Source: an uncultured Mycoplasmatota bacterium
GTDB taxonomy: Bacteria > Bacillota_I > Bacilli_A > RF39 > UBA660
NCBI GenBank assembly: GCA_948465965.1
Contig: CAOJYR010000001.1
Coordinates: 40,353 to 72,352 of the forward strand
Reading direction: 5' to 3'
Length of the DNA: 32,000 nt
In this document: in pieces, positions 171 through 22,826 of the stretch
How the letters are laid out: each line of letters opens with the position of its first letter
How positions within the stretch are numbered: the stretch's first letter is position 1
The notes under the pieces: generated by a model
The model's database searches: none
What the model saw: only the letters and a program-made list of their open reading frames with translations
What the model was told of the DNA's origin: nothing
Made by a program: the position numbers and the translations under genes

Positions 171-191
171 CCATACCACCTCGCAGGAGTT

Positions 192-200
192 ATTATACCA
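192..200 (-). promoter_or_regulatory. second extended -10 element TGgTATAAT upstream of the left-edge ORF
   Basis: Identical 13-nt block to 410-422. Lies about 20 nt upstream of the GAGGTGG RBS of the ORF starting at 170. Confidence 0.3.
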
Positions 201-221
201 TATATAGCATTAAAACACAAC

Positions 222-404
222 AAAAAAAGCCAGAAAAGAGCGTCCTGTCCAACGATAAAACCTGCATATTTACAGGTGGGTGTTCTTACGTCATCCTTAG
301 GATCCCTACTAATAAGCAGGTATTCAACACAGATAACTGTTCAAAACTCCCTTATCGTCACTTTAGTCGGTTTTATATGAGAACAAGTCTCGCATCTTCC
401 TGAC
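222..404 (-). ncRNA. candidate structured small RNA of about 180 nt (6S-like end-to-end closing stem); identity unproven
   Basis: GC-enriched, non-coding stretch in an AT-rich context. An extended -10 box (TGgTATAAT, 419-411) sits about 7 nt upstream. The 5' GUCAGGAAG can pair with the 3' CUUUUCUGGC, with G-U pairs, just before a U7 tract (228-222). The + strand ORF 155..403 here looks spurious. Confidence 0.3.
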
Positions 405-410
405 AATTAT

Positions 411-419
411 ATTATACCA
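411..419 (-). promoter_or_regulatory. extended -10 promoter element TGgTATAAT (drives the candidate sRNA)
   Basis: Reverse complement of attatacca. The same 13-nt string tattataccatat recurs at 191-203. Confidence 0.35.
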
Positions 420-490
420 TATCTAAAGTTTTATATACAAGTCTTTTAACAAAAATAAGTAAAAAGAATAAATTATTATAGGTGAATGAT

Positions 491-1249
491 ATGTATTATA
501 ATACAGAAGATTTTTCTATTTACTATGAAAAATTTGGTAATAAAGAAAAAACAATTCTAATCCTTCCTGGTTGGGGAGATACTAGAAAAACATTCTACAA
601 TATAATAAACTACTTTAAAGAAGATTATACTATTTATATATTTGACTATCCAGGATTTGGAAACAGCATTTTTCCAAGTAATAATTTAACAATTTATGAT
701 TATGCCAATTTAGTAAGAAATTTCATGACAGATAACAAAATAAATAATCCTATAATAATAGCACATTCATTTGGTGGAAGAATTGCAACTCTTCTTACAG
801 GTTATTATAAAGAAAAAATTGATAAACTAATTATGATTGACGCAGCCTCTATAAAACCAAGAAAAAAACCATTACAATTTCTTAAGGAAAAACTATATAA
901 ATTATTAAAGAAATTATCTTATTTGTTACCAAAAGCAAAAAGAGAAAACTATCTTCAAAGATTAATAAAAAAATTTGGATCAACAGACTACAAAAGTATT
1001 CCTAAAACAATGCAAATAACTTTTAAAAATATAGTAAATGAAGACCTAATATACTATTTAAAATCCATAGAAAGTGAAACCCTTCTTCTTTGGGGAAAAC
1101 GAGATGATGCTACTCCATTAAAAGATGGCATTAAAATGAAAAAATTAATTAAAGATTCAGCCATTATCGTTTTTCCAGAAGGAAGCCATTTTTCTTATTT
1201 AGATTATCCAATATTAACAAATAAAATAATAAAAGAATTTATAAAATAA
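491..1249 (+). CDS. alpha/beta-fold hydrolase
   Basis: Nucleophile elbow AHSFGG, an ILPGWG oxyanion region and a C-terminal GSHF (His) are present. ATG 491 is 6 nt after AGGTGA; the ORF track starts at GTG 482. Confidence 0.75.
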   Translation: MYYNTEDFSIYYEKFGNKEKTILILPGWGDTRKTFYNIINYFKEDYTIYIFDYPGFGNSIFPSNNLTIYDYANLVRNFMTDNKINNPIIIAHSFGGRIATLLTGYYKEKIDKLIMIDAASIKPRKKPLQFLKEKLYKLLKKLSYLLPKAKRENYLQRLIKKFGSTDYKSIPKTMQITFKNIVNEDLIYYLKSIESETLLLWGKRDDATPLKDGIKMKKLIKDSAIIVFPEGSHFSYLDYPILTNKIIKEFIK

Positions 1250-1274
1250 AAAGTCTAATCAAAAGACTTTTTTT
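1248..1274. terminator. bidirectional rho-independent terminator
   Basis: aaaaagtct-aatcaaa-agacttttt hairpin flanked by A and T runs, between convergent genes. Confidence 0.6.
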
Positions 1275-1944
1275 ATTGTATAATTTCATCATTAGTATCA
1301 TCTAATGAGCGAACAACAATTTTTGAATGAAAATGTTTATTTGACATATCATCGTTGAACGTATTAGATACCCATATTCTAATAGAATGATTAACCTCTT
1401 CCTCACCAGATAATGTTTCTGAAAAAATTTGATAACTATCCTTCATTCCTTTAAGACTAATAGGCTTTTCCCCATCAATACTATATTTCAAAACATCCAC
1501 CTCAAGCAATTTATCCTGGCATTTGTCAGCTTCTATCATATCATAGTCCATTTCCAATTTAACAACATATGTACTCTTACCTTTCCTGTTATTAGTTATT
1601 GTAAAATAATAAGGTTTTGTTTTAAGACCATCCTGATCATCTAATGGATCTGAATTGACTAAGCTAATTATATCACCTAAACCTTTATTATCATCATTAA
1701 AGGAAACATTAAACCCTCCAGTCCTTAAAATATTATTTTCTCCTGTTTTTTGCACTGACGAAAAAGTAAAAAAGGCAGTGATCAAAATAACTATTAAAAT
1801 AGATACAACAGAAATGATAGTAAGTTCTACTTCACGAGCTTTCATTCTACTAATAACACTTCTAACTTGTATCCCATTTCCCCTTTTAATTTGAGAAATC
1901 GTTAATTTTTTCTTGTTTCTTTTTCTTACCTTTTTCTCTTCCAT
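1273..1944 (-). CDS. membrane-anchored hypothetical protein
   Basis: ATG 1944 (MEEKKVRKRNKK...) lies 6 nt after GGATGGAG. One TM segment (LTIISVVSILIVILITAFF). The track start at 2019 lacks an RBS. Confidence 0.5.
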   Translation of the reverse strand: MEEKKVRKRNKKKLTISQIKRGNGIQVRSVISRMKAREVELTIISVVSILIVILITAFFTFSSVQKTGENNILRTGGFNVSFNDDNKGLGDIISLVNSDPLDDQDGLKTKPYYFTITNNRKGKSTYVVKLEMDYDMIEADKCQDKLLEVDVLKYSIDGEKPISLKGMKDSYQIFSETLSGEEEVNHSIRIWVSNTFNDDMSNKHFHSKIVVRSLDDTNDEIIQ

Positions 1945-2024
1945 TATAATCTCCATCCATTCATATTGCCTATCATCTATATCTAATAAAAGTATAACAA
2001 AACCAAATAACGAAAACAAGCAAT

Positions 2025-2843
2025 TTATTTTCTTATTTCACGTTTAATCAATTTAGCATGTAATACCATTTTTTCATTATTATTATAACAAGTAGATAAA
2101 GTTATAATTTTATCATTTTCTAATACTTCAGTATTAAAATTATAAACACTTCTACCTCGAATAAGATGAATAAAACTATTAAATTGACTACTATTACCAA
2201 AATTAATATTCAAATAATCATCTGTAGTTTTGATATGATAAATACTAAACACTTCATATAAATAATTATTATTTGGAGTAGAAATTTTCACTAAGAAATT
2301 ACTATCATTAGAAAACCATTCCTGCCTCAAAGTACTTTTTAAACTCCCAAACATAGTTCCATCCACTCTACCATGAGCATAAATAATTGTATTTTTATCT
2401 AATTCATCAATATTATTTCGATAATCTAAAAACACCCAACCTGCATCATTATATTTTTTATTAAAAGAATGCTTTAAATAATAACTATTATCGCTATGTT
2501 GTACAAAAGGGTAATCTATATTAGTACCTAAAACCTTTATCCAACCAACAACTTCATTATTAACCTCCTGTAATTTAGAAAAGTCAACACGAAGCAATTT
2601 CTCATTATGATATTTACTATTTCCATATACTTCTGTTAAAGAACCATCCCCCGCTTCACTTCTTTTAGCCTTATCTTGAACATTCCTAATTTCATTGTTT
2701 GTATTCATATTATCAATCCACCAAGAAACTATCCTGTAAAAGGAATACATCATCAACAAACTAAAAAATATAAGTAAAACGAATAATATAATTGTCTTAA
2801 TTTTTCTTCTAGATCTTCTCCTAACCCTAAATATCCCCATCAC
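2025..2843 (-). CDS. class B-type sortase (transpeptidase)
   Basis: N-terminal TM anchor, catalytic His context IIYAHG, the TLSTC active-site motif, and a C-terminal Arg region. Confidence 0.75.
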   Translation of the reverse strand: MMGIFRVRRRSRRKIKTIILFVLLIFFSLLMMYSFYRIVSWWIDNMNTNNEIRNVQDKAKRSEAGDGSLTEVYGNSKYHNEKLLRVDFSKLQEVNNEVVGWIKVLGTNIDYPFVQHSDNSYYLKHSFNKKYNDAGWVFLDYRNNIDELDKNTIIYAHGRVDGTMFGSLKSTLRQEWFSNDSNFLVKISTPNNNYLYEVFSIYHIKTTDDYLNINFGNSSQFNSFIHLIRGRSVYNFNTEVLENDKIITLSTCYNNNEKMVLHAKLIKREIRK

Positions 2844-4213
2844 TACTCTCCTATTTTATCTAAAATATAATTAGAAACATCCTCTGTTTTTAATGTAATC
2901 TGTTCCATAGTATCCCTGTCTCTTACAGTGACTGTACCATTATTTATAGTCTCATCATCAACTGTAATACAATATGGAGTACCAATCGCATCACTTCTTC
3001 TGTAGCGTTTACCAATAGATCCAGTCTCATCATAGCTTGTCATAAATTTAGAGCTTAACTCACTATAAAGTTCTTTAGCCTTTTCTCCATGATATTTTTT
3101 ATTTAAAGGTAAAACAGCTACTTTATATGGAGCAAGATATGGAGTTAACTTCATAACTTCACGTCTATCTCCACCCTCAAGTTCTTCCACTGTATAAGCA
3201 TTATCTAAAACAGCTAAAACTAATCGATCACATCCAACAGTAGACTCAATGATATAAGGAATATATTTTTCATTAGTTATAGGATCCAAATATTCTTGGG
3301 ATACAGTAGAATACTCTTGATGACGACTCAAATCATAATTGGTTCTATTATGGGTTCCATTAATCTCTCCCCATCCAAAACTAAATTGATATTCAATATC
3401 ACATGCCTCTTTTGCATAATGAGCAAGTTTTTCATGATCATGATATCTTAACTTCTCTTCTGGAATTCCCAAATCTATAAAATATTTTTTAGCATATTCT
3501 CTAAAATAATTATAAAGATCTGAATCAAATCCTTCCTTACAAAATGTTTGATATTCCATTTGTTCAAATTCTATAGTTCTAAAAGTAAAGTTACCTGGAG
3601 TAATCTCATTTCGAAATGCTTTACCAATTTGACCAATACTAAACGGAAGCTTAGCTCTCATACTTCTTTGAACATTTAAGAAATTAACGTATTCTCCTTG
3701 TGCATTCTCAGGGCGCAAATAAACTTTATTTTTTCCATCTTCTGTAACACCGCGATGTGTTTCGAACATTAAATTAAATTGTCTAATATTCGTATAATCA
3801 CTCTTACCACACTTTGGACAAGGTACTTTATGTTCGCGAATATATTCCATCATCTCTTCTTGTGTCATACCATCCGCATGAGCATCAGGATCAAAATCAT
3901 CAATTAAGTTATCAGCACGATGCCTCATTTTACAACTCTTACAATCGATTAATGGATCCGAAAAACTTCCAACATGACCACTTGCTTCCCAAACACGAGG
4001 ATGCATTAAAATAGCCGCATCAACTTCATAAGCATTGGGACGTTGTTGTATAAATCTTTTCCTCCAAGAATCCTTAATATTATTCTTTAATCTCGCTCCA
4101 AGTGGTCCATAATCCCATGTATTCGCAAGGCCTCCATATATCTCACTCCCTTGAAATATAAAACCATATTGCTTACAATAATTTACTAATTTCTCCATTG
4201 TTAACTTTTCCAT
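2843..4213 (-). CDS. glyQS: glycine--tRNA ligase, single-chain type
   Basis: N-terminus KQYGFIFQGSEIYGGLANTWDYGPLG plus class II aaRS motifs throughout. AGGAGG lies 6 nt before the ATG. A T-box leader lies upstream. Confidence 0.95.
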   Translation of the reverse strand: MEKLTMEKLVNYCKQYGFIFQGSEIYGGLANTWDYGPLGARLKNNIKDSWRKRFIQQRPNAYEVDAAILMHPRVWEASGHVGSFSDPLIDCKSCKMRHRADNLIDDFDPDAHADGMTQEEMMEYIREHKVPCPKCGKSDYTNIRQFNLMFETHRGVTEDGKNKVYLRPENAQGEYVNFLNVQRSMRAKLPFSIGQIGKAFRNEITPGNFTFRTIEFEQMEYQTFCKEGFDSDLYNYFREYAKKYFIDLGIPEEKLRYHDHEKLAHYAKEACDIEYQFSFGWGEINGTHNRTNYDLSRHQEYSTVSQEYLDPITNEKYIPYIIESTVGCDRLVLAVLDNAYTVEELEGGDRREVMKLTPYLAPYKVAVLPLNKKYHGEKAKELYSELSSKFMTSYDETGSIGKRYRRSDAIGTPYCITVDDETINNGTVTVRDRDTMEQITLKTEDVSNYILDKIGE

Positions 4214-4445
4214 ATGTATCCTCCTTAAAATTAAAAAACTTCTAAAATTTATAAGGACGAGTTTTCCCGCGGTTCCACCTTACTTATTCTAGAAGAATCA
4301 TCTTTAACTTATACTGCTCGTAGCTTTCCACACCAGTCATCACACTTATCACTTAAAATAATACCTGTTTTACTTAAAAATGTCAATATTTTTAATTCTA
4401 CTTTCAGCAATCATGAAATAATTAATTTTCTCTTTTCACATCATT
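4214..4445 (-). promoter_or_regulatory. T-box leader (tRNA-sensing riboswitch) of glyQS
   Basis: The minus strand reads AAGGTGGAACCGCGGG (4281-4266), matching the conserved T-box antiterminator sequence. A GA/K-turn-like TGATGTGAAAAGAG lies near 4440. A possible specifier GGU followed by A lies at 4365-4362. The 5' boundary is approximate. Confidence 0.75.
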
Positions 4446-4487
4446 TTACATACTTAGTATTTAATAATCTCATTTATACAATATATA

Positions 4488-5408
4488 TTATGCAACATCA
4501 TCTATTTTATTTATCTGCTCTTTAGTCAAATGGGTATACTTAGATATAAATTCGATATCTATATCATCTTTTAACATCGCTTTAGCTATTTCTTTGGAAC
4601 CTTCTTGTTTACCTAAATCCTTCCATGCCCATTCCTTGTCATAACTTTCTCCAAAAAACTCATCTTCTACTACTTCCTCTGCTTCTTTTATATATTCTTC
4701 CATAATCTCCAAGTCTCCTCCTAATTCTTTTGAAGTTAGAATATCTGGCTCTATTAATCCTAGTGCATATCTTTCTTCTTCACTTAGTCTTTGTATGCCA
4801 CTAGTATACCATTTTCGTCTTAAATTTGGAATATAGATTTGAATAAATATTAACTTATCATTTAATACGACTCCTTCATCATTTTTAATCATATAAATAT
4901 CTATTATTTTATCATTCCCCTTAAAAGAAAAGTTATTCCAGTTGAATTGAATCACCTGTGTATAAGAATAGTCACTATTTCTTTTTACTTTACTTGCATA
5001 AAGTCTATGAGCATATTCCATATTTCGCTCTAGTACTTCTTTACTACTATTATTATTTATTTCTATATTTATTTTAATATCATTCACTATCGCAACATAA
5101 TCACATCTCTCTCCTTTATTTCTTTCTTTATCTTTATCCAATTCTCCTTTTGATAATTTAATATTATTTAGTAAGTCTTCATATTCAATATCTAGGTAAT
5201 ACGATAAAAACTTAGCCGAATACTTTATTCTGTTCTCATTATAAAACATAGTTTTAAACATACTATCTGACATTATAGATGGCTTTTGTCCTTCTTTCAA
5301 TTTTTCAATTTTTACTGAATCCTTATATGAAACAATATTATCATATAAAGACTTATAATTATAATCTCTTAATTTTAACACTTTATTCCTCCCAATAGTT
5401 TGACTCAT
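4488..5408 (-). CDS. PD-(D/E)XK nuclease family, putative transposase (Rpn/YhgA-like), island-flanking copy 1
   Basis: FKTMFYNENRIKYSAKFLSYYL...CDYVA...INIEINNN fits the Rpn-like D...ExQ/N core. Paralogous to 11639..12448. An alternative start is ATG 5273. Confidence 0.55.
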   Translation of the reverse strand: MSQTIGRNKVLKLRDYNYKSLYDNIVSYKDSVKIEKLKEGQKPSIMSDSMFKTMFYNENRIKYSAKFLSYYLDIEYEDLLNNIKLSKGELDKDKERNKGERCDYVAIVNDIKINIEINNNSSKEVLERNMEYAHRLYASKVKRNSDYSYTQVIQFNWNNFSFKGNDKIIDIYMIKNDEGVVLNDKLIFIQIYIPNLRRKWYTSGIQRLSEEERYALGLIEPDILTSKELGGDLEIMEEYIKEAEEVVEDEFFGESYDKEWAWKDLGKQEGSKEIAKAMLKDDIDIEFISKYTHLTKEQINKIDDVA

Positions 5409-5580
5409 TCGAATAAGTAGATAAACTATAACAGGAGAAACAATTTATTGCAAACTATACTTTTTACAAATACAAAAGAAAAAGATTAAGAAAAAATTAT
5501 ATTCTCCTAATCAATTATTTAAATTTATATAGATTACTTATTTTCTTTTACAAGTTTACAACAAACAATGAATAGTAATT

Positions 5581-7188
5581 TCATCTATGCATATTTACAT
5601 TAGAGTAATGGTTACTTGTATCAAGCAATAATCTTTTAAGTTGTTCATCTGTTATATTTATTACTTTTCCACCCTTAGGATTAATTTTTTTACCACCAAA
5701 AACAATCCATATTGCATCAATACTCCTATCTGGCATACTAGATTCTCCATCGGTAAAGATTATCTTGTTTTCAACTCTCCCAGTAAATACATTAACAGCA
5801 ACATCAAAGTTTGTTCCACCACCACCAAGAAATGGCATATTATCAATATCATTTTGATTTCTAATCTCGGTAAACCCATAAAATTCATCATCGAAACATC
5901 CTACTTTTACTTTAGATTCTTTTAAAATGTTTTTACATTCTCTTAAAAAATTCCTTAATAGCGTTTCAGAAACAGACCCACTTGTATCTAATAATATCTC
6001 AGTCTCAGGCTTAGGCATTTGTTCAAGATAAGGAGTTACTACGCCATCCTCTATAGAAGCATTTCTATAAGACCAATCAACATCATACCTCACAGCCTCT
6101 TTCAAGAGATATCTCCAATCGATTAATGGTTTACTTACACCTATATCAGTTACCTTTCTTTCATCACCATTTGACCCCTTCCCAGAACAATGTGACTGAC
6201 TAGCAAGTGATTTTCTTAATTCCTCCAATTGCTTTATTCGATCTATACTATTCTGTTTAAAAGATTTCTTTTCACCTAAATCTGTCAATTTTTTAATTTG
6301 TTGTTCCTTCTCTTTTCGCTTTTCATTCTTTTCCCTTTGAAAATTAGTTTTGGCATCCTCTGAAGTTTTCTCTATTGTTTGCTCATCTTGATTCGCATTA
6401 CCCTTTTTATCATTCCAATCCTTATGAAAAACTCTATCAAAAAAGCCTCTTTTATCTTTGGAGTTTATATTACCTTTAGTACCAACCATATCCGTATCAC
6501 TTGATTGTTGTACCGAATTGTCCTCTAAACCACTATCCTGTTTTTCATGTTGAAAGTCTTGATGTGGTGATTGTTCTAATTTATTATTATTAGCATCCTC
6601 ATCCTCTTGACGTCTTTTCTGGACACCCTTTTGCCACATATTATGTGTATCATACCCCACATCTATATTAGATGCTTGAGAATTTTCACTAGAACCTGAC
6701 CTGCTTTCATTTTGAGAATTCTGTTTCTGGGGACTAATACTATCCTGTGATTCATTACTGTTTTTATCCTGATGCCTTTTCTTATCCTCTAATAATTTCT
6801 CATAAAAAGACTCAGCATCATAATAAATAGCCTCTGGAATATTAATACTATCTTTTGGAATTACTATACCATCTTGTTTTAAATTAGCATTTACAACAGC
6901 ATCCGTTGCTATATTCCAAAGTTCAGGATCCTTCCCTTCACTTCTAAAAATATGATCAAAAGCTATATGACATATTTCATGTGCAAAAAGATACAATCTT
7001 TCTTCTTCTGTTGCATTCCTTAAATAATCTGGATGATAATAAACATTAGTTCCATCCGTCCCTCCAGTTGGTTGACCATTAGAATAACAATTGCTATCTT
7101 CTATATAATTTGTATTTGCTACTATACTTCCAAAAAAAGGATACTTAACTAATAACTTTCTTTTAATTGCTTCAATATCCACTTTCAA
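5581..7188 (-). CDS. putative Zn-metallopeptidase (HExxH) fused to a VWA domain (DUF2201-like), with a long low-complexity linker
   Basis: N-terminal FAHEICHIAFDH...ATDAVVN (HExxH). C-terminal ILLDTSGSVS (DxSGS MIDAS-type motif). A central linker of about 200 aa is rich in Q/S/N/E/K. Confidence 0.7.
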   Translation of the reverse strand: MKVDIEAIKRKLLVKYPFFGSIVANTNYIEDSNCYSNGQPTGGTDGTNVYYHPDYLRNATEEERLYLFAHEICHIAFDHIFRSEGKDPELWNIATDAVVNANLKQDGIVIPKDSINIPEAIYYDAESFYEKLLEDKKRHQDKNSNESQDSISPQKQNSQNESRSGSSENSQASNIDVGYDTHNMWQKGVQKRRQEDEDANNNKLEQSPHQDFQHEKQDSGLEDNSVQQSSDTDMVGTKGNINSKDKRGFFDRVFHKDWNDKKGNANQDEQTIEKTSEDAKTNFQREKNEKRKEKEQQIKKLTDLGEKKSFKQNSIDRIKQLEELRKSLASQSHCSGKGSNGDERKVTDIGVSKPLIDWRYLLKEAVRYDVDWSYRNASIEDGVVTPYLEQMPKPETEILLDTSGSVSETLLRNFLRECKNILKESKVKVGCFDDEFYGFTEIRNQNDIDNMPFLGGGGTNFDVAVNVFTGRVENKIIFTDGESSMPDRSIDAIWIVFGGKKINPKGGKVINITDEQLKRLLLDTSNHYSNVNMHR

Positions 7189-7198
7189 ATTTATATCC

Positions 7199-7597
7199 CT
7201 AAATATGCACCATCAATGAATATACTTCTTCACTAATTGGCTTTTCCTCTAGATTAGTAGCTGTTACAATAATAAAACAATTTCTTGGTAAGTCAAAGGT
7301 ACTAATTTTCTTATATTTTAATATTTCAATAAATTTTGTTTGTTTATCTAGTTTAAGTTGATTTATATTATCTATAATTAGTATTGCAGGTTTATCCTTA
7401 TTATTTGTTAATTCATAGTACCAATCAGGTGCTCTAAAAGTAAAACCTTCATAATGCCCATTTAATAATGAAATATCACAATTTGCATCTATTATGACAG
7501 CATTTTCAAAAATATTCGCAGGAATATCTTCTAACAAAATTGGAGACATACCTGATCGAATATATCCATCTAACATCGCTAATCTCTCTTTGTTCAT
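7199..7597 (-). CDS. small AAA-like protein lacking a Walker A motif
   Basis: PAILIIDNINQL resembles Walker B and CFIIVTATN resembles sensor 1, but no GxxxxGK(S/T) is present. The start overlaps the upstream stop (ATGA, 7597-7594). Confidence 0.45.
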   Translation of the reverse strand: MNKERLAMLDGYIRSGMSPILLEDIPANIFENAVIIDANCDISLLNGHYEGFTFRAPDWYYELTNNKDKPAILIIDNINQLKLDKQTKFIEILKYKKISTFDLPRNCFIIVTATNLEEKPISEEVYSLMVHI

Positions 7598-9207
7598 CGA
7601 CTCATTCCTCCTTCCGATAGCTCAACCATTTTTAATTCTGCTATTTTCTCTAGTCTAGACTCATCACCATGGGACCACAAGCTATCAAAAGTAGCTCCAA
7701 TTTCTGGTCCTAATTTCATAACAAAATTTCTTATAGTTAGTAAATTACTATCATCAACTGAGGAAAGCCCAACTGCTGTTGCAAACTTCTGTGCTGTATT
7801 CATTTCTAAATCCTCTTCTGTATAATTACCATTCAATACATCTTCAACCGTTATAACTCGCTGCCTAGTAAATGCAGTAAAATCTCTTGTTAACTCCTCT
7901 CCAATTAATGCCCTTAACATTTCAGGTTGCCCTGTAGCATACAAAACTTTAGATGCCATCTCCCATTTTCTGGGATCTGCATTTGGTTTTTCCCCATTAT
8001 AGGGAGTCCTTAGAACATCCTTACCACCAGAGGATTTATAAGCAACATATGCATATATTGAAGGATGAATTGTTAATTGTTCCTCTTCTTTTTTATAATT
8101 CAATCTTTCATATTGCTTTTTTGGAGTGGATGCCCATTGAAGCCAATTATCAACTGTTGTATTTATATATACATGAGCAAAACGATTAAATAGTGGTTCT
8201 GCCATTGTATTCGCAGCTAGAGAATCATTTAAATCATTTCCTGCAGCAACAATACGTACATTTTCTGGTAATTTCCAAATACCATTTACTTCTTTGTCCA
8301 AAACAATATTAAACGCCATACCCTGAATAGAAGGAAGCGCATTTGTAATTTCATCAAAAAATACAATATGCAATTTATCAGGTTCATCTTCACATTTCTT
8401 TTTAATTTTAGAAAGCCAAGTTGGAGCTACATCAATCATCTCTCCAGTTGCAGAATTAAAAACACTTTTTCCATTCAAACTCTCAGGAGTTGCATTCCTT
8501 AAATAAATAATCTCACAATCAGGATCAAATTGTTTTACTCTTGCACTTTTACCCTCACTACTTCTACCATGCAAAAAAACCGCAATATTACTTTCCAACG
8601 CACCCCTAATAATTTCTTCTTCTGATACATTTTCAAAATTAAAACCATATGGATTTTGTCTTCTCTCCATTCGTTTTCTTTCTTCATCTGTTAAAGGTTT
8701 GCTTTCTACAAATGATCTATTCTGCATTAAATCAGTTGAAAAATACGTATCCATATATTGTTTTATATCTGTTGTACTAAAATCCCCTTTATAATCTCTC
8801 TTATGTTTAAATTGAACCCCTGCAAATAATATCTTCTCACTAAGCATAATTCCTGATTGCTCATCAACTATCCACTTAACAGGTTCTACTTCTACCCAAA
8901 CATAATCTCCATCGACATACTCACACCCATTAGATAGTGTAAATTTACTACCACCAAAATCTGAATTCGCCAAAACCCTTACATATCTTTTATTATCATA
9001 TTCATATTCATCTATAGTCCTCGGTAAAAACTTTTCATCATATTCATCATATTTTCTTGAATCAACAGTATATGTATTACCTGTTCGTCTCATTCTACCG
9101 CTATGATACGCTTGCTCTAATGTAGACTGCATAAGTTGCGTAGCCACAGTTTGTGGATAGAATCCATACTCAACTTCTAAAATACCGTCATCCGCTCTTC
9201 TACTCAC
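7594..9207 (-). CDS. MoxR-like AAA+ ATPase with an N-terminal beta-rich (DUF6273-like) region; probable body of the DGR target
   Basis: Walker A GRSSEGKS, Walker B HIVFFDEITN, sensor-1 VRIVAAGN. The track start GTG 9207 has no spaced RBS, and the frame stays open upstream through the VR to 9303. Confidence 0.75.
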   Translation of the reverse strand: MSRRADDGILEVEYGFYPQTVATQLMQSTLEQAYHSGRMRRTGNTYTVDSRKYDEYDEKFLPRTIDEYEYDNKRYVRVLANSDFGGSKFTLSNGCEYVDGDYVWVEVEPVKWIVDEQSGIMLSEKILFAGVQFKHKRDYKGDFSTTDIKQYMDTYFSTDLMQNRSFVESKPLTDEERKRMERRQNPYGFNFENVSEEEIIRGALESNIAVFLHGRSSEGKSARVKQFDPDCEIIYLRNATPESLNGKSVFNSATGEMIDVAPTWLSKIKKKCEDEPDKLHIVFFDEITNALPSIQGMAFNIVLDKEVNGIWKLPENVRIVAAGNDLNDSLAANTMAEPLFNRFAHVYINTTVDNWLQWASTPKKQYERLNYKKEEEQLTIHPSIYAYVAYKSSGGKDVLRTPYNGEKPNADPRKWEMASKVLYATGQPEMLRALIGEELTRDFTAFTRQRVITVEDVLNGNYTEEDLEMNTAQKFATAVGLSSVDDSNLLTIRNFVMKLGPEIGATFDSLWSHGDESRLEKIAELKMVELSEGGMSR

Positions 9208-9510
9208 TCCGTTCGTAGAGATATCAGAGATTGAAGAGTACGTTAAAGCTGGGCGAGCACCACCATCGCGTTTAATAACATCGATGTCGTATCTATAACC
9301 ATTCTAGTAAACGACGCGCGCGTCATTATCCTGATCATCAGAACTTGTCCAATACCATCCTGTCCTATCCGCTAAAGTATTATTACTATGGTCAACATAA
9401 TAATCATCATCGACATAAGCGCCCAATAAAATTGAAAAATCTGTTACAGCCGCCTTTGTACCTCTTTTTTTTATAATATTAATTGGATTATTAAAATATT
9501 GATTTTTACA
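9208..9510 (-). pseudogene. DGR variable-region module (KAAVTDFSILLG...GWYWTSS...ARPAL) in frame with the AAA+ ORF, interrupted by TAG at 9306-9304, with no canonical start
   Basis: My translation: CKNQYFNNPINIIKKRGTKAAVTDFSILLGAYVDDDYYVDHSNNTLADRTGWYWTSSDDQDNDARVVY*NGYRYDIDVIKRDGGARPALTYSSISDISTNG, followed by VSRRADDG of the AAA ORF. The pseudogene label is provisional. Confidence 0.6.
9249..9322 (-). repeat. DGR variable repeat (VR)
   Basis: 74-nt match to 10763-10836 with 11 mismatches (9267, 9268, 9275, 9282, 9284, 9288, 9291, 9297, 9298, 9304, 9309). Each mismatch faces a T on the + strand of the TR, which is an A on the coding strand. Confidence 0.93.
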
Positions 9511-10539
9511 TTATTTGACATCTTTTGGTAAAATTTTCCTTTTAAAATTCAAACTTTCATCTGTATTTTTAACATGATTATAAAATGCATTTTTTCGCAT
9601 ATAAACATAAAAGGAATCTACAATATTCTTATTTTCTAATTTTTCTAGTGTTCGTAAATGTTTTTTCATTCTTGATTTAGAAGATGCTCTAAGTTTCCTA
9701 ATAATCTTTCCACTATCTGTTAGTATATGTCTGTAACCTAAAAAATCAATTCCATCACACACTTTCCCAATCTGTGTCTTTTGATTTAAAGATAATTTAA
9801 GTTCTAAAGAGCAAACTCTCTCTATTTCTTTTAAACATCTACGTAAATATGCTTTATCACGATGTATTAAAATCATATCATCCATATACCGAACATAACC
9901 TTTTATTCTAAACCTCTCTTTAATAAGTCGATCAACTTTATTTAAATATAGTAAAGCAAACCATTGACTAGTCTGGTTCCCCAAAGGTAGTCCAATTTTC
10001 ACATCATTAGGTTGCTGTCGTATCATCTTCTCTATAATCCACATTTCATCATCACTAAAGGATACTTCTTTCAATAATTTAATAAGTATATCATGATTAA
10101 TACTAGGAAAATACTTCTTTATATCACACTTTAAAAAGTAAAAATGATTATTATTCTCTTTTAAATACTCATGGCGCAAAAATTTTTCTAATCTATGAAT
10201 CGCAAAATCAGAACCCTTACCACACCTACATGCAGCATTATCAAATATAAGCTTTGCCTCAATCTTTTCTTTAACCGAATGATCACAAAGACACCTTATC
10301 ACTACTCTATCCTTATAAGGAAGAGCTTCAATTAATCTCTCTTTCGGTTCATAAATATAAAATTCGCGATATTTACCCAATTTATATTCTCTGGTAGTAA
10401 TTTCTTTTATTATCTTACTTATATTAACACTAAGATTAGCTTCAAATCGAATCACCTCACCCTTATGTTGTTTGCCTTTGCGACAATTTTTATGGGCTTC
10501 ATATAAATTTTCAAAAGTAAAAATATCTTCTAATTTCAT
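9511..10539 (-). CDS. DGR reverse transcriptase
   Basis: IGLPLGNQTSQ matches the DGR-type (I/L)GxxxSQ. YMDD catalytic box (VRYMDDMILI). An N-terminal FENLYEAHKNCRKGK region is present. Size of about 340 aa with no maturase or endonuclease domains. ATG 10539 lies 4 nt after GGAGGGAG. Confidence 0.9.
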   Translation of the reverse strand: MKLEDIFTFENLYEAHKNCRKGKQHKGEVIRFEANLSVNISKIIKEITTREYKLGKYREFYIYEPKERLIEALPYKDRVVIRCLCDHSVKEKIEAKLIFDNAACRCGKGSDFAIHRLEKFLRHEYLKENNNHFYFLKCDIKKYFPSINHDILIKLLKEVSFSDDEMWIIEKMIRQQPNDVKIGLPLGNQTSQWFALLYLNKVDRLIKERFRIKGYVRYMDDMILIHRDKAYLRRCLKEIERVCSLELKLSLNQKTQIGKVCDGIDFLGYRHILTDSGKIIRKLRASSKSRMKKHLRTLEKLENKNIVDSFYVYMRKNAFYNHVKNTDESLNFKRKILPKDVK

Positions 10540-10551
10540 AACTCCCTCCAA

Positions 10552-10762
10552 AAAAAGAACACCCCTTATAACCTCTAAAGATAGAATAATCTAACGTTAG
10601 AAAGTGTAAGTGTTCAAATTATTCCACCGCACTAATCTCTCCTAGCGGTTAGAAAAGAGAAAAATCCCTTCACTCTATGGAACTGATATATCTTACTTAA
10701 AATATATTTCTCTGTCCTGTTTTCTAGATTCACGATTTTTGTAAATCTCTTCAAAAGTGAAT
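10552..10762 (-). ncRNA. DGR spacer RNA region between TR and RT (part of the TR transcript)
   Basis: Non-coding and GC-enriched relative to its surroundings. Contains the 8-bp hairpin AGATTCAC/GTGAATCT (10726-10733 with 10757-10764) abutting the TR 3' end, and a CCGC...GCGG hairpin near 10628-10650. Confidence 0.6.
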
Positions 10763-10836
10763 CTGGGCGAGCACCACCATTTCGTTTATTAACATTGTTG
10801 TTGTTTCTATTTCCATTTTAGTTAACGACGCGCGCG
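10763..10836 (-). repeat. DGR template repeat (TR)
   Basis: In the target frame the coding strand reads cgc gtc gtt AAC TAA AAT gga AAT aga AAC AAC AAC AAT gtt AAT aaa cga AAT ggt ggt gct cgc cca. This is the AAY-codon-rich pattern typical of DGR TRs. It is non-coding, between avd and RT. Confidence 0.93.
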
Positions 10837-10924
10837 AGGCAACACGAGGGGGCTCAAGCGACGTAACCACCCTAAAATTAAATTTTTCTCTTAATTAAAA
10901 GCCTTTCGACTTAAAATCCTAAAA

Positions 10925-11503
10925 TCATTTTCTAAATCTTTTATCGTCACTTTTTTTCCAAGCAACAATCAAATTTATAGCATCAGCTGTCTGTAAAGAT
11001 ATCTGCCTATATTGCTTTCTTAAAATACAGCCAGATGATTCCGCAACCATTGCAATATAGCCAAGCATTTTAAGTTTAACAATTGCTTCTTTTTGAAAAT
11101 CTTCACGACGCTTCTTATTTAGATCACTATCCAGTCTTATAAAATTGGCCTGAAGCAAATCTTCTAAAACATCTAAACAATAATTTTGCATTCGATTAAC
11201 AAAAACTCCTCTAAATCTTTTAGGAGATTTCTCTGTAATAGCTATAACATAAGCACATAATTTCTTTACTTTAGTTATAACAATTAAATCATTAGAATTA
11301 AAAGGTATCTTAGAAACACTCTCTAATTCTCTGTCAAAGTCTTCCACCTGCTCTAAAATCTTCTTCTCATTGATTTTTTTATCATTCGCCATCGCAATAG
11401 ATATTTTTGATTCAACTTCATCATCTACACTATTCACGACTTTTACGACTTGTTCTACTTCTTTTGGTATTTTCAAACTACCATCTCTACTAACTTGTAA
11501 CAC
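10925..11503 (-). CDS. avd: Avd-like accessory variability determinant (four-helix-bundle family) with an N-terminal extension
   Basis: The C-terminal ~120 aa (KLCAYVIAITEKSPKRFRGVFVNRMQNYCLDVLEDLLQAN...LKMLGYIAMVAESSGCILRKQYRQISLQ...AWKKSD) resembles Avd and 23S-IVS helical bundle proteins, and the gene sits in the canonical position 5' of the TR. GTG 11503 lies 8 nt after GGAGGG. The track start 11563 falls in a -35 box. Confidence 0.7.
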   Translation of the reverse strand: MLQVSRDGSLKIPKEVEQVVKVVNSVDDEVESKISIAMANDKKINEKKILEQVEDFDRELESVSKIPFNSNDLIVITKVKKLCAYVIAITEKSPKRFRGVFVNRMQNYCLDVLEDLLQANFIRLDSDLNKKRREDFQKEAIVKLKMLGYIAMVAESSGCILRKQYRQISLQTADAINLIVAWKKSDDKRFRK

Positions 11504-11534
11504 TACTACTACCCTCCAAGTTAATTTTAATAAT

Positions 11535-11563
11535 AGTATAATGTAACACAAAAATTTACGCAA
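11535..11563 (-). promoter_or_regulatory. sigma-A-type promoter of the DGR operon (TTGCGT-17 nt-TATACT)
   Basis: -35 box at 11563-11558, -10 box at 11540-11535, spacer of 17 nt, about 30 nt upstream of the avd start. Confidence 0.45.
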
Positions 11564-11638
11564 TAAATATTTAGTTTACTTTTTACAAAAACTATAACAT
11601 AATTCTATTTTAAAACTAAAAAATCTTATAGATAGAAC

Positions 11639-12448
11639 CTATTTTAACTTTTCTACTTCTTCAATGGATAATTTTGTTATTTTAGAAATTGTACCAATAT
11701 CTATTTTTTCCTTTATCATCTCTTTTGCCATATTTATTGTATTGTCTTTCGCACCATCATTATATGATTCTTCTTTTAAAGCTAATTCTTTATCATAAAT
11801 CTCACCAAAATATTCATCATCTAATACCTCATTTACTTCTTTTATATAGTCTTTCATAATTTTTAAGTCTCCTCCCAATTCTTTAGAAGAAATTATATTT
11901 GGCTCTACTAAAGCCAATATAAATCTTTCTGCTTCGGTTAGGTTTTGTATACCTTGATTGTACCATTTTCTCCTTAAATTGGGAATATAGATTTGAATAA
12001 ATATTATATCATTTGAGAGTCTTAATTTTCCTTTATTATTTATTGTATAGATATCTATTACTTTATTATTTCCAACGAATGAAAAGTTATTTAAATTAAA
12101 TTGTATTATTTGCCTATATTTATAAGTGGATTTGTCTTTTCCTCTTTTTACTTTACTTCCATATAATTTGAATGCATAGTCCATGTTCCTCTTTAAATAT
12201 TTCATATTACTATTACTATTACTATTATTATTTACCTCAATATTTATTCTAGCATCATCTATACCCGCTACATAATCACTTCTATATTCCTTATTATTAT
12301 GTTTTTCTTTGTCCAACTCTCCCTTGCTTAACCTTATATTTTCTAACAATTCTTCATAACTTATATCTAGAAAGTATGAAATGAATTTAACACTATACTT
12401 AAGTCTATTTTCATTATAGAAAATAGTATGAAATAGCGTATCAGACAT
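11639..12448 (-). CDS. PD-(D/E)XK nuclease family, putative transposase (Rpn/YhgA-like), island-flanking copy 2, N-terminally shortened
   Basis: Collinear with 4488..5408 (FHTIFYNENRLKYSVKFISYFL...SDYVA...INIEVNNN) and shares identical nucleotide runs such as ggaatatagatttgaataaatatta. Homologous coding-like sequence continues upstream to the recO stop without a start codon. Confidence 0.55.
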   Translation of the reverse strand: MSDTLFHTIFYNENRLKYSVKFISYFLDISYEELLENIRLSKGELDKEKHNNKEYRSDYVAGIDDARINIEVNNNSNSNSNMKYLKRNMDYAFKLYGSKVKRGKDKSTYKYRQIIQFNLNNFSFVGNNKVIDIYTINNKGKLRLSNDIIFIQIYIPNLRRKWYNQGIQNLTEAERFILALVEPNIISSKELGGDLKIMKDYIKEVNEVLDDEYFGEIYDKELALKEESYNDGAKDNTINMAKEMIKEKIDIGTISKITKLSIEEVEKLK

Positions 12449-12532
12449 TATGGATGGTTTTTCTCCCTCCCTTAAACTTTCAATTTTTAAAGTTTTACTT
12501 TTCCTTACATTTTTTATTTTAATATAAAAAAC

Positions 12533-13273
12533 TTAACTAGTTAATTTGTTAAGCTCCCTAATAAAGTTTTTACTTTTTAAATAAATTCCTGTATATCGAT
12601 CATAATAATCATCTAAAAATTGATTAATCTCTTTTACCACACTCTCACTTACATCTAATTTAGTTATATTTTTAATATCAACATAATAAAACAATCTAAT
12701 CATCTTTATTGCTTTATCACTTACCAATGGCTCATTTTGATAACAATTCCGACAGATGTATCCTCCCGCAGTAGAGTCAATCGTTACAATCGCCTTATCA
12801 CTACCACATATACTGCAAAAATCAATAGATGGTCTAACCCCTAAAAAATCTAAAAGTTTTAATTCTAAAATATTAGTAAGAACAATTGGAGAAAAGCCTT
12901 CATCCATTTTTAGTAGTGTATCTTTAAAAAGTTCAAATATCTCCTCATCTTCACTTTCTTTAGTCACCTGATTAACAAGTTCTAAAATAAAAGAGGCATA
13001 ACTTACTCTTTCTAAATCCATTACGATATTAGAAAAAGAATTAATAATATCTACCCCAATTAATGTAGATAGTCCTTTTTCTTTAAAATAAATATGAAAA
13101 GTACCATAAACAAGTTTTCTACTCACCCCACGTAACTTACTTTTCATACTACGACATCCCTTAGACATAATTCCAATAAGACCAAATTCTTTTGTTAAAA
13201 CATTTAAAATCTTACTAGATTCACTATAATTTGTCTCACTTAAAACAATTCCTTCTACTGCTTCTATTTTCAT
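12533..13273 (-). CDS. recO: DNA repair protein RecO
   Basis: OB-fold N-terminus and a Cys4 zinc module (CSICGS...CRNC). Conserved era-yqzL-recO order. Confidence 0.85.
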   Translation of the reverse strand: MKIEAVEGIVLSETNYSESSKILNVLTKEFGLIGIMSKGCRSMKSKLRGVSRKLVYGTFHIYFKEKGLSTLIGVDIINSFSNIVMDLERVSYASFILELVNQVTKESEDEEIFELFKDTLLKMDEGFSPIVLTNILELKLLDFLGVRPSIDFCSICGSDKAIVTIDSTAGGYICRNCYQNEPLVSDKAIKMIRLFYYVDIKNITKLDVSESVVKEINQFLDDYYDRYTGIYLKSKNFIRELNKLTS

Positions 13274-13277
13274 ATAA

Positions 13278-13361
13278 TCACTTCTTCTTTATAACTTGTA
13301 ATAAATTATAATACTTTATATCTCCTGTTTTTTTAAACAAATCCCAAAGTATTTCATCCAT
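13278..13361 (-). CDS. yqzL: YqzL-family micro-protein (27 aa)
   Basis: MDEILWDLFKKTGDIKYYNLLQVIKKK. GAGGTGA lies 5 nt before the ATG. It occupies the same era/recO intergenic slot as Bacillus yqzL. Absent from the ORF track because of its size. Confidence 0.6.
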   Translation of the reverse strand: MDEILWDLFKKTGDIKYYNLLQVIKKK

Positions 13362-13432
13362 TAAAATCACCTCTACATTTCTATAGTGGTGATTATCTAT
13401 TTATATTATACACATTTTTTTAAATTTTTCTT

Positions 13433-14326
13433 TTAATTTTCATCCTCATCCTTAAGTCCAAGTTCTAAAAAGTATTTCTCTTCATCACGCCAATTCTTTA
13501 AAGTTTTAACGTACGTCTCTAAAAATACTTTCTTACCTAAGAATTTTTCCATATCATATCTCGCACGTGACCCTATCTCTTTAAGCATAGACCCACCTTT
13601 TCCAATAATAATTTTTTTAATATTATCACGATCGACTACAATTAATACCTGAATATGCACTAGATTTTCTTCTTCTTCATAACTCTCCACATAACAAGTG
13701 ACACTATGAGGAATCTCTTGTTTCGTTAATTCTAAAACTTTCTCTCTTACTAACTCTGCCATAATAAACCTTGTTGAAACATTAGTTAAATCCTCCTCGG
13801 AATAAATTTTATCCATCTCTGGTAAATATTTTTTCAAACAATGAACTAATTCATCAATATTGTTATTCTTCATTGCAGATATAGGAATAATTTCAGCAAA
13901 GTCATATAATTCTTTTAACTCATTAATTTTTTCAAGTAAAATGGTCTTATCTTTAATTTGATCAATTTTATTTAAAAGTAAGAATACTGGAACGCCCCTA
14001 TCCTTTATTTTATTTAAAATGAAAGCATCCCCCTTACCAAAACCTTTAGCTATATCAATTAAAAATAAAACAACGTCAACACCTTCCGTATTATTATAAG
14101 CCTTCTTATTCATTAAATTGCCTAATTTATGACTGGGTTTATGAATACCGGGTGTATCAATAAAAATAATTTGTGCATCACTAGTATTATAAATACCCTG
14201 TATAACATTACGAGTCGTACCACTAACATTAGAAGTTATAGCAAGCTTCATTCCAAGAAGACTATTTAAAAGGGTACTTTTCCCAACATTAGGACGTCCT
14301 ACTAAACTTACAAAACCACATCTCAT
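13433..14326 (-). CDS. era: GTPase Era
   Basis: G1 GRPNVGKST, G3 DTPG, G4 NKID, and a C-terminal KH domain (IIGKGGSMLK). Confidence 0.95.
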   Translation of the reverse strand: MRCGFVSLVGRPNVGKSTLLNSLLGMKLAITSNVSGTTRNVIQGIYNTSDAQIIFIDTPGIHKPSHKLGNLMNKKAYNNTEGVDVVLFLIDIAKGFGKGDAFILNKIKDRGVPVFLLLNKIDQIKDKTILLEKINELKELYDFAEIIPISAMKNNNIDELVHCLKKYLPEMDKIYSEEDLTNVSTRFIMAELVREKVLELTKQEIPHSVTCYVESYEEEENLVHIQVLIVVDRDNIKKIIIGKGGSMLKEIGSRARYDMEKFLGKKVFLETYVKTLKNWRDEEKYFLELGLKDEDEN

Positions 14327-22749: not shown

Positions 22750-22826
22750 TGGTGTCCGCGAGGCGACTCGAACGCCTGACCGATCGCTTAGAAGGCGATT
22801 GCTCTATCCAGCTGAGCTACGCAGAC
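22750..22826 (-). tRNA. tRNA-Arg (anticodon TCT), CCA encoded
   Basis: The minus strand reads GTCTGCGTAGCTCAGCTGGATAGAGCAATCGCCTTCTAAGCGATCGGTCAGGCGTTCGAGTCGCCTCGCGGACACCA. It has the D-loop AGCTCAGCTGGATAGAGC, the anticodon loop CTTCTAA, and the T-loop GTTCGAGTC. Confidence 0.9.

Follow-up and report, generated by a model that had tools for sequence, protein, structure and literature searches.

What does the diversity-generating retroelement (DGR) of an uncultured bacterium diversify, what might the diversified protein do, and can the copy at hand still do it? The locus that raises these questions lies in a stretch of 32,000 nucleotides (nt) from an uncultured Mycoplasmatota bacterium (contig CAOJYR010000001.1, positions 40,353 to 72,352; hereafter the window), a piece of bacterial chromosome with low GC content (27-33%) in which all the features described here lie on the minus strand (Table 1). 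The DGR is followed by a region encoding its target, an AAA+ ATPase, and by two further genes, one for a small AAA-like protein of 132 amino acids (aa), which we refer to as mini-AAA, and one for a peptidase/VWA protein with DUF2201 domains. Our preferred explanation, to which as a whole we assign a probability of about 0.62, is that the DGR diversifies an N-terminal module of ligand-binding type (the N-module) in a cytoplasmic AAA+ ATPase that heads a three-gene operon. Taken by themselves, the structural description of the system and the null state of its copy in the window are highly probable.

The DGR and its target

The window contains a real DGR. Its template repeat (TR) and variable repeat (VR), each 77 nt long, differ at 12 positions, and all 12 differences, scored on the coding (minus) strand, fall at TR adenines, of which there are 29. 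The two repeats have a common GC-rich 3' end (GGTGGTGCTCGCCCAG) and are divergent beyond it. The reverse transcriptase (RT) gene is apparently intact, and the best phage relatives of its product are the DGR RTs of nd12 (41%) and FP_Brigit (35%), gut phages with DUF6273 targets. The Avd gene occupies the canonical position upstream of the TR; its product matches Pfam bAvd (E 5.5e-5), NCBIfam DivGenRetAVD (E 1.7e-6) and phrog_3206 ("Avd protein of DGR", E 6.5e-16), with the bAvd and DivGenRetAVD scores lying under their curated cut-offs. Its real start may be the ATG at 11392.

This machinery rewrites about 20 codons of the N-module, predicted to form a beta-hairpin and a loop, in an adenine-directed manner. 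The first-pass annotation, made from the sequence alone, had proposed both the DGR and the position of its VR at the N-terminus of a cytoplasmic AAA+ ATPase, and on both counts it was right. It had also called an N-terminal VR unusual. Such VRs are rare, but they have precedents: a few were listed by Wu et al. 2018 (PMC5758913), and the tentaclins of phages are defined by N-terminal VRs of the DUF6273 type (PMC10743442).

Table 1. Coordinates of the features in the window, and of TAA-bearing TRs in the window and in related loci (L numbers, each in its own numbering)
Feature	Position	Strand	Remarks
6S RNA gene	224-408	-	Rfam score 47.9 bits, marginally over the gathering score (46.4)
Second Rpn-family/PDDEXK_2 gene, downstream edge of the island	4488..5408	-	PDDEXK_2 E 4.1e-12; 72-77% nt identity to 11772-12489
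HExxH-peptidase/VWA protein, 535 aa	5581..7188	-	DUF2201_N, DUF2201; phrog_1314 E 2.5e-56
Mini-AAA, 132 aa, paralog of the AAA+ alpha/beta core of the ATPase	7199..7597	-	hhalign probability 98.35%, E 1.1e-14, 125 columns
Largest intact target open reading frame (ORF), 537 aa from GTG	7594..9207	-	Second half of the N-module, AAA+ core and C-terminal helical region
Remnant of the N-terminal variable module	8718..9510	-	Without promoter, ribosome-binding site (RBS), ATG and first ~8 codons; interrupted by the stop in the VR
VR, 77 nt	9246..9322	-	12 mismatches to the TR
TAG stop in the VR	9304..9306	-	Codon is TAA in the TR
DGR RT, 346 aa	9511..10551	-	RVT_1 E 1e-17; phrog_1423 E 7e-102; LGNQTSQ and YMDD
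TR, 77 nt	10760..10836	-	In the target frame ARVVN*NGNRNNNNVNKRNGGARP; one in-frame TAA among AAY codons
Avd accessory gene	10925..11563	-	212-aa mechanical ORF from TTG; Avd domain at residues ~93-205
Rpn-family/PD-(D/E)XK transposase-like gene, upstream edge of the island	11639..12448	-	TIGR01784 E 2.3e-9; paralog of 4488-5408
tRNA-Arg(TCT)	22750-22826	-	
TAA-bearing TRs	window 10760-10836; L008 8621-8714; L016 8612-8699; L018 7980-8067; L081 8860-8945; L094 2349-2428		

Target family and AAA+ core

With the reconstructed target protein as a query, more than 3262 database matches were obtained at E<=1e-5, mostly about 645 aa in length and with 100% coverage; an exhaustive search gave 655 clusters (50% identity) at E<=1e-30 and 5363 at E<=1e-3. 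Members of this family share an N-module of about 270 aa with the VR near the N-terminus, an AAA+ core that is nearest to the Pfam AAA_5 family, and a helical tail. The window sequence contains a Walker A motif (GRSSEGKS, 8568-8545), a Walker B motif (IVFFDE, 8367-8350), sensor-1 (IVAAGN, 8253-8236) and a conserved arginine motif (PLFNRF, 8196-8179), at the positions given by the first-pass annotation, and these motifs are kept throughout the family, bar some paralogs with degenerate P-loops. Several full-length members have lost a recognizable Walker A motif (P0136, P0155 and P0182 in alignment A2, with sequences such as LHTRLDEDTT and HTRNNKEKK) and are probably inactive ATPase paralogs. Tandem duplication also expands the family, either as two ATPase genes in a row or as two complete operons (L001/L010, 8081-11911; L002, 6326-11890), and in proteins P0002-P0004 (~910 aa) two N-modules stand in tandem ahead of a single AAA core.

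Assigning the AAA+ core to a known family proved less straightforward. Among 39 diverse members, the AAA region was matched by AAA_5 in 11 (best E 1.6e-6), Sigma54_activat in eight, AAA in five, bpMoxR in two and AAA_3 in one, and most of these E-values are weak. The AAA+ motifs and the pairing with a VWA gene are consistent with the earlier label "MoxR-like", but as a family assignment "AAA_5/MoxR-like" is fair but loose: AAA_3, which would indicate MoxR proper, was found in only that one of the 39 members, and the profile search did not retrieve MoxR from the PDB. A PDB sequence search with the single target protein returned nothing, and family profiles returned only a marginal match to NtrC-type AAA+ proteins (E~0.01) and to a hemopexin motif. 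The target ATPase does match phrog_1297, annotated as "ATPase", with an E-value of 1.2e-41. The AlphaFold2 model of a full-length member 69% identical to the target, built from an alignment of 39 sequences, has a predicted local distance difference test score (pLDDT) of 87.9 and consists of a compact N-module (residues 1-272), a disordered linker, and the AAA+ alpha/beta core followed by helical domains. Foldseek matched this model to AAA+ proteins of the MCM type at a template modelling score of about 0.2; these matches reflect the generic combination of a beta-domain with an AAA+ domain, and no more.

No transmembrane segment or signal peptide was found in the ATPase, mini-AAA or the DUF2201 protein (maximum 19-aa hydropathy about 1.1), as the first-pass annotation had stated for the ATPase, and because of this we take the operon proteins to be cytoplasmic.

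The variable module and its fold

The N-module behaves as one domain in structure prediction: the AlphaFold2 model of a homologous N-module alone has a pLDDT of 95.2 and a predicted template modelling score of 0.93. The VR maps to a beta-strand-turn-beta-strand element and the loop that follows it (about residues 72-95 of the model). The first-pass annotation had assigned the VR module to the C-type-lectin/DUF6273 class. DUF6273 is described as a C-type-lectin-like scaffold that presents the VR as a surface beta-hairpin (PMC10743442, PMC11792537, bioRxiv 10.1101/2024.10.15.618418), and the VR-bearing segment of the N-module does match this family. The match is confined to that segment and covers profile positions from ~77 or 103 to 169 of 172; it reaches E<=1 in 5 of 26 N-modules (best 2.9e-4), and against a cut-off of 23.5 bits the score is 27.3 for P0002, 25.4 for P0026 and 12.5 for the window-derived sequence. 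Fib_succ_major gave weak matches over the same segment. The structural half of the assignment fared less well. The model is of high confidence and places the VR on a hairpin and loop, yet Foldseek searches of PDB and BFVD gave no significant match for it; a phage DUF6273 protein appeared at rank 32 in BFVD, and structures of Mtd, TvpA and FGE were not retrieved with the N-module. Judging from the profile matches, a lectin-type fold of the VR-bearing domain is plausible.

A second DUF6273-like stretch, which had been reported downstream of the first, would be expected if the domain were circularly permuted. Permuted constructs made for the window and four relatives left the N-terminal half of the profile unmatched and did not improve the score; we reject the permutation, and the second stretch is unsupported. 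A different similarity recurs in the module: the motif EYEY.GKKYVRV (N-module profile residues ~168-204, window ~8990-8880) repeatedly gave weak matches to hemopexin-fold blades (3oyo, E 3.5e-4), which is probably a resemblance of short beta-hairpin motifs only.

Operon partners and their conservation

The ATPase and mini-AAA genes overlap by 4 nt (7594-7597), and a gap of 10 nt (7189-7198) separates the mini-AAA and DUF2201 genes, exactly as the first-pass annotation had it. Mini-AAA, described there as an AAA-like protein without Walker A, is indeed related to the core of its neighbor (Table 1); it has neither a P-loop nor a lid, and IIDNIN stands in place of the acidic Walker B pair. The description of the third product as an HExxH-peptidase joined to a VWA domain with a metal ion-dependent adhesion site (MIDAS) was likewise confirmed. 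Both of its Pfam domains score well above their cut-offs (DUF2201_N: E 2.6e-27, 96.5 bits against 23.2; DUF2201: E 4.7e-11, 43.3 bits against 26.4), the motif HEICH (6981-6967) marks a putative metallopeptidase, and the MIDAS motif DTSGS (5988-5974) lies in the C-terminal VWA-like domain. The two domains are connected by a charged, low-complexity linker of ~200 aa rich in K, S, Q, D, N and E. As far as the motifs tell, the ATPase and the peptidase-VWA protein of this system have their catalytic motif set intact.

We surveyed conservation in 88 related loci from genomes, metagenomes and one viral contig. The mini-AAA gene directly follows the ATPase gene in 53 of 56 loci, and the DUF2201 gene follows the mini-AAA gene in 51 of 56; the exceptions are mostly tandem duplications or incomplete downstream sequence. 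Thus, the three genes are a conserved unit rather than unrelated neighbors, which was the outcome that the earlier proposal of an operon had called for. NCBIfam has no family for any of the three proteins, and the papers searched for DUF2201, COG3864 and APE2220 contained nothing useful on the partner protein.

The target gene is disabled in the window

The first-pass annotation treated 9510-7594 as an open gene and did not mention any disablement. This did not hold up: read in the target frame, the span is interrupted within the VR by a TAG codon at 9306-9304, and no start codon (ATG, GTG or TTG) is present upstream of 9426. Intact homologs, whose N-terminus reads MNNFTFLTEEQIFG.NKLDII.KRGTKAA, start with an ATG behind a GGTGAT RBS and a TATGGTAAAAT-like -10 element, 70-110 nt past the RT stop. 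The RT stop in the window (9513-9511) directly joins ...NQYFNNPINIIKKRGTKAAV, which corresponds to codon ~9 of these homologs; therefore, a deletion of ~100 nt took the promoter, the RBS, the ATG and the first ~8 codons. The origin of the TAG can also be traced. Because the TR has TAA at the same codon, the DGR itself wrote the TAG into the VR by an A-to-G change at the third position. The 537-aa ORF that remains starts at a GTG (9207) that has no well-spaced Shine-Dalgarno sequence.

Recoding of the stop codon was considered and rejected, as TAA, TGA and TAG end 17, 8 and 5 long ORFs in the window, that of mini-AAA included: the genetic code is standard and the TAG is a genuine stop. An assembly artefact is unlikely because the RT/target junction and the VR of the window recur with 100% identity in a second, independent assembly (L007), a match that is uninformative on DGR activity. 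The target allele in the window is therefore a null, either dead or in an OFF state, and the cassette is a recently disabled copy in which the RT, Avd, the 537-aa ATPase ORF, mini-AAA and the DUF2201 gene are each uninterrupted.

DGR activity and null alleles among relatives

Among 57 loci with upstream sequence of at least 1.5 kb, 20 have Avd, TR and RT directly upstream of the target, as do 8 of the 26 with at least 9 kb, although the sampling of these loci is not independent. At least 10 related loci yielded TR/VR pairs whose differences are biased to adenines. When near-identical target genes are compared, variability peaks in the 120 nt that hold the VR, with 24-34 variable columns per 60 nt versus mostly 0-15 elsewhere; for example, the differences between L016 and L018 are mostly in the VR. 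Lineages without an adjacent RT often have one identical VR across many samples, which suggests that the VR was frozen after loss of the DGR, unless a remote TR acts on it. Another kind of disruption was seen in L014 (~4190-6400), where an insertion of ~2.3 kb splits the DGR RT gene, with the C-terminal part of the RT and the target following intact; the product of the insertion reads like a reverse transcriptase/maturase of a group II intron.

Most relatives have an intact target, and about 8 (about 7%) of the 120 closest homologs are called as N-truncated ORFs. The lesions in related loci are of several types. L016 and L018 have TGA in the VR where their own TR has TAA, L094 has a nonsense codon just 5' of the core VR, L095 has a frameshift inside the VR, and the RT of L091 is reduced to a 106-aa remnant. 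Following Avd, L096 (916-1500) has a TR-like sequence, ARVVNNDGNSNNN*VNKRNGAARP, fused to the post-VR part of the target; apparently, recombination between TR and VR deleted the RT together with the 5' end of the target. The resulting ORF of 538 aa (P0010) stands for 21 member sequences.

TRs are generally described as avoiding stop-prone codons. Here, 5 of the ~10 distinct TRs (window, L008, L016/L018, L094, and L081/L059/L031) contain in-frame TAA, which falls at four different codon positions. The VR codon opposite the TAA is a stop in the window (TAG) and in L016 and L018 (TGA), and a sense codon in L008 (TAC) and L081 (TCG); thus, the TRs of the latter two loci were in use while carrying TAA. 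These codons could be due to neutral drift of an untranslated template, or they could be a tolerated or selected OFF switch.

Comparison with known systems

A close parallel in proposed logic is provided by the vWA-MoxR (VMAP) ternary conflict systems with which DGRs are associated in cyanobacteria, Chromatiales and other multicellular bacteria (Kaur et al. 2020, PMC7159879; Dore et al. 2024, PMC10907252). As in those systems, a DGR diversifies a predicted cytoplasmic sensor, the three components center on an AAA+ ATPase with a VWA protein, peptidase-type effectors are involved, and the sequence of events would be sensing, ATP-driven remodelling and an effector step. The architectures differ in the placing of the VR and in all three partner families. 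In VMAP systems the VR is in a C-terminal FGE/C-type lectin (CLec) domain on the vWA protein, MoxR is separate and undiversified, and the third component is VMAP, whereas in the window family the VR is in an N-terminal module on the ATPase itself and an AAA paralog without a P-loop takes the place of the third component. Unlike in VMAP systems, the VWA partner is a DUF2201 protein that includes an HExxH domain, and gut Bacilli of low GC content, which are unicellular, are the hosts rather than multicellular bacteria.

Tentaclins of gut phages, in which an N-terminal DUF6273 VR is followed by immunoglobulin (Ig) domains (PMC10743442; PMC11792537; bioRxiv 10.1101/2024.10.15.618418), resemble the window family in the DGR half of the locus. 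The order Avd-TR-RT-target, the location of the VR close to the 5' end of the target gene, the predicted beta-hairpin plus loop, the match of the VR segment to the C-terminal part of DUF6273 and the kinship of the RT to those of nd12 and FP_Brigit are all shared with these and other DUF6273 targets. However, tentaclins have Ig-like domains, with a conserved Ig anchor at the C-terminus, and bind receptors at the virion or cell surface, while the module of the window family leads into an AAA+ ATPase that has no signal for export, and profile scans of proteins of the window and the family detected no Ig-like families.

DGR-targeted fusions of CLec and AAA ATPase domains have been noted in bacteria belonging to the candidate phyla radiation (CPR; Paul et al. 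2017, as summarized in PMC10907252), and UVR4/Midasin-like targets are also mentioned (PMC5758913). According to these accounts, a DGR-variable domain is likewise joined directly to an AAA-type ATPase, suggesting the ATPase as the transducer of ligand binding. In the CPR fusions as summarized there, the variable domain is C-terminal, and the summary does not report DUF2201 or mini-AAA partners; this comparison draws on the published descriptions.

The non-diversified half of the system has its counterpart in phages. The ATPase (phrog_1297) and the DUF2201-type HExxH/VWA protein (phrog_1314) form a phage gene pair, and 560 phage records carry the ATPase. In the N4-like Achromobacter phage phiAxp-3 (L089, 3561-6339) the pair is ADP65_00028 and ADP65_00031, two genes apart, and the partner, which has HExxH and DxSxS motifs, matches the DUF2201 protein with a phmmer E-value of 1.8e-24. 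The phage ATPases are ~360 aa long and have neither the variable N-module nor a DGR; the small ORFs between the ATPase and DUF2201 genes of phiAxp-3 and PA5oct show no homology to mini-AAA. The ATPase/DUF2201 pairing is older than the window family. In phage records and in phrog_1314 the partner is labelled "HNH endonuclease", which looks like a misannotation of a metallopeptidase/VWA protein.

MoxR ATPases are well-known partners of VWA proteins in chaperone pairs such as RavA-ViaA, CoxD-CoxE, NorQ-NorD and CbbQ-CbbO. The window family resembles these pairs in having an AAA+ gene of the helix-2-insert/AAA_5 type beside a gene for a MIDAS-bearing VWA protein, and differs from them in the peptidase domain of the partner and the hypervariable domain of the ATPase. 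Taken together, N-terminal DUF6273 VRs (in tentaclins) and DGR-diversified MoxR/vWA systems (in other phyla) are already known; the fusion of the N-module to the ATPase was not found described in the papers searched.

Proposed mechanism and alternative explanations

The preferred explanation can be laid out as a series of steps, the first of which is shown: the RT copies the TR with adenine-specific errors, and the complementary DNA replaces the VR. The later steps are suggested by MoxR/VWA pairs and by the NTPase conflict systems that DGRs diversify. The ATPase ring would display the variable N-modules, and these would capture an intracellular ligand that varies, most plausibly a protein of a phage or mobile element. 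ATP hydrolysis and remodelling, together with contact through the MIDAS of the VWA domain, would couple binding to the HExxH peptidase as the effector, and the inactive mini-AAA would serve as a regulatory or structural subunit. At the window locus, a deletion fused the RT stop to codon ~9, and the last mutagenic homing turned TAA into TAG in the VR. A role in defence or conflict, which the first-pass annotation had proposed and which the same analogies suggest, is a possibility to which we give slightly less than even odds. A more specific version is quite unlikely in all its parts: a DGR-programmable intracellular AAA+ ring, carried by gut Bacilli and some of their prophages, whose six hypervariable N-modules, built on a scaffold for which no structural neighbor is detectable, capture changing invader proteins and pass them to a tethered VWA-metallopeptidase, with the TR TAA codons as a stochastic OFF switch that limits cost. 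If it were true, ring and peptidase would amount to an anticipatory, antibody-like proteolytic immunity in unicellular bacteria.

Several observations weigh against the preferred explanation. The N-module model has no Foldseek neighbor at E<=0.001 (best E 0.07 in PDB and 0.05 in BFVD), and with no significant structural neighbor a lectin-type binding site in it is not demonstrated. The AAA core is weakly assignable to MoxR. The target in the window is untranslatable as a full protein, and nothing in the window shows a working system. Among relatives, 37 of the 57 loci have no adjacent RT, and several have frozen VRs. PADLOC gave no match for the three operon proteins, and the neighborhoods of the cassettes consist mainly of housekeeping genes, with no recognizable defence island around them. 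The steps that follow the rewriting of the VR are drawn from analogy. Finally, because the AAA/DUF2201 pair is common in the genomes of lytic phages, its ancestral role may have been that of a chaperone or in host takeover, not in immunity.

This last point leads to an explanation without any defence, in which a chaperone or remodelling module of phage origin (AAA+ plus VWA/peptidase), of the kind seen in N4-like and jumbo phages, had its substrate-recognition domain diversified for other ends, such as tuning the recognition of variable host or prophage proteins, or prophage functions in superinfection or host takeover. The strong matches to phrog_1297 and phrog_1314, the hundreds of phage records with the ATPase, the pair in phiAxp-3 and the relatedness of the RT to gut-phage DGR RTs are all consistent with it, as is the cassette in L008, which follows prophage genes for tail, holin and endolysin. 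Yet most loci are chromosomal and lie amid housekeeping genes, the full fusion of N-module and ATPase occurs in only one viral contig among those scanned, and the phage versions lack both the variable N-module and mini-AAA; we consider this explanation unlikely. The possibility that the whole island is a decaying, non-functional relic with a dead target and no current role, even if its DGR possibly still acts, deserves somewhat more credit, although we find it doubtful, too. The deletion of promoter, RBS and ATG and the TAG in the VR are what decay would produce; the identical null allele in a second assembly and the independent lesions in L016, L018, L094, L095, L096 and L091 point the same way. 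Against this stand the uninterrupted state of every other gene of the cassette and the complete lack of non-adenine mismatches between TR and VR over 77 nt, which points to recent homing; moreover, decay accounts for the state of the window copy and not for the function of the family.

The null alleles themselves could have a function if the TAA codons of TRs were selected, with homing yielding either a nonsense codon (OFF) or a sense codon for Tyr, Trp, Ser, Cys, Leu or Phe (ON) in a costly sensor. The recurrence of in-frame TAA among distinct TRs at four codon positions fits such DGR-driven switching, and so do the stops found exactly there in the window, L016 and L018, the sense codons in L008 and L081, and the proportion of close homologs called as N-truncated. 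However, TRs are untranslated, and a single neutral substitution can turn AAA into TAA; the fraction of stops observed fits the neutral expectation, other null alleles stem from unrelated lesions, and the window allele, which also has no start codon, is beyond repair by homing. On balance, selected switching is very unlikely.

Returning to the preferred explanation of a diversified ligand-binding-type module on a cytoplasmic ATPase, its interest is in where it would extend a known idea. Intracellular sensors diversified by DGRs have until now been linked to multicellular bacteria, with a C-terminal CLec domain on vWA or STAND proteins, and to CPR lineages. The window family would add abundant, unicellular, uncultured Bacilli of the human gut, a variable domain on the motor ATPase and a tethered metallopeptidase-VWA partner, the last of which hints at programmable recognition coupled to proteolysis. 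It would also provide a possible function for the AAA/DUF2201 gene pair, as yet unexplained, that hundreds of phage genomes carry, and the many independent null alleles and stop-prone TRs raise the question of what a hypervariable intracellular binder costs its host.

Genomic context and mobility

The DGR and the operon form an island of 8 kb between the end of recO (12533) and the start of glyQS (4213). The flanks are housekeeping in character: to one side lie ybeY, dgkA, cdd, era and recO, to the other the genes for glycyl-tRNA synthetase and a sortase. Within the island the order is an Rpn/PDDEXK_2-like gene, Avd, TR, RT, the target region, the 132-aa gene, the DUF2201 gene and a second Rpn-like gene. 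Scans of this AT-rich window for promoters gave 36 promoter-like sites versus 35 expected, and scans for terminators gave none.

Cassettes of relatives are found at unrelated chromosomal positions with housekeeping genes around them. In L008 (IMG/VR contig, 173-13622), genes for tail, tail-fibre, holin and endolysin lie upstream of the Avd-TR-RT-target-miniAAA-DUF2201 cassette, which occupies the position of prophage cargo. Because it occupies such differing sites, between Rpn-like genes here and in a prophage in L008, the cassette behaves as mobile cargo. One related locus has it next to a TnpB/IS605 gene and a HipA-like gene. The two Rpn-like paralogs that bracket the island in the window are direct repeats with 72-77% nucleotide identity, 7.17 kb apart, and may represent a composite mobile unit or a substrate for deletion.

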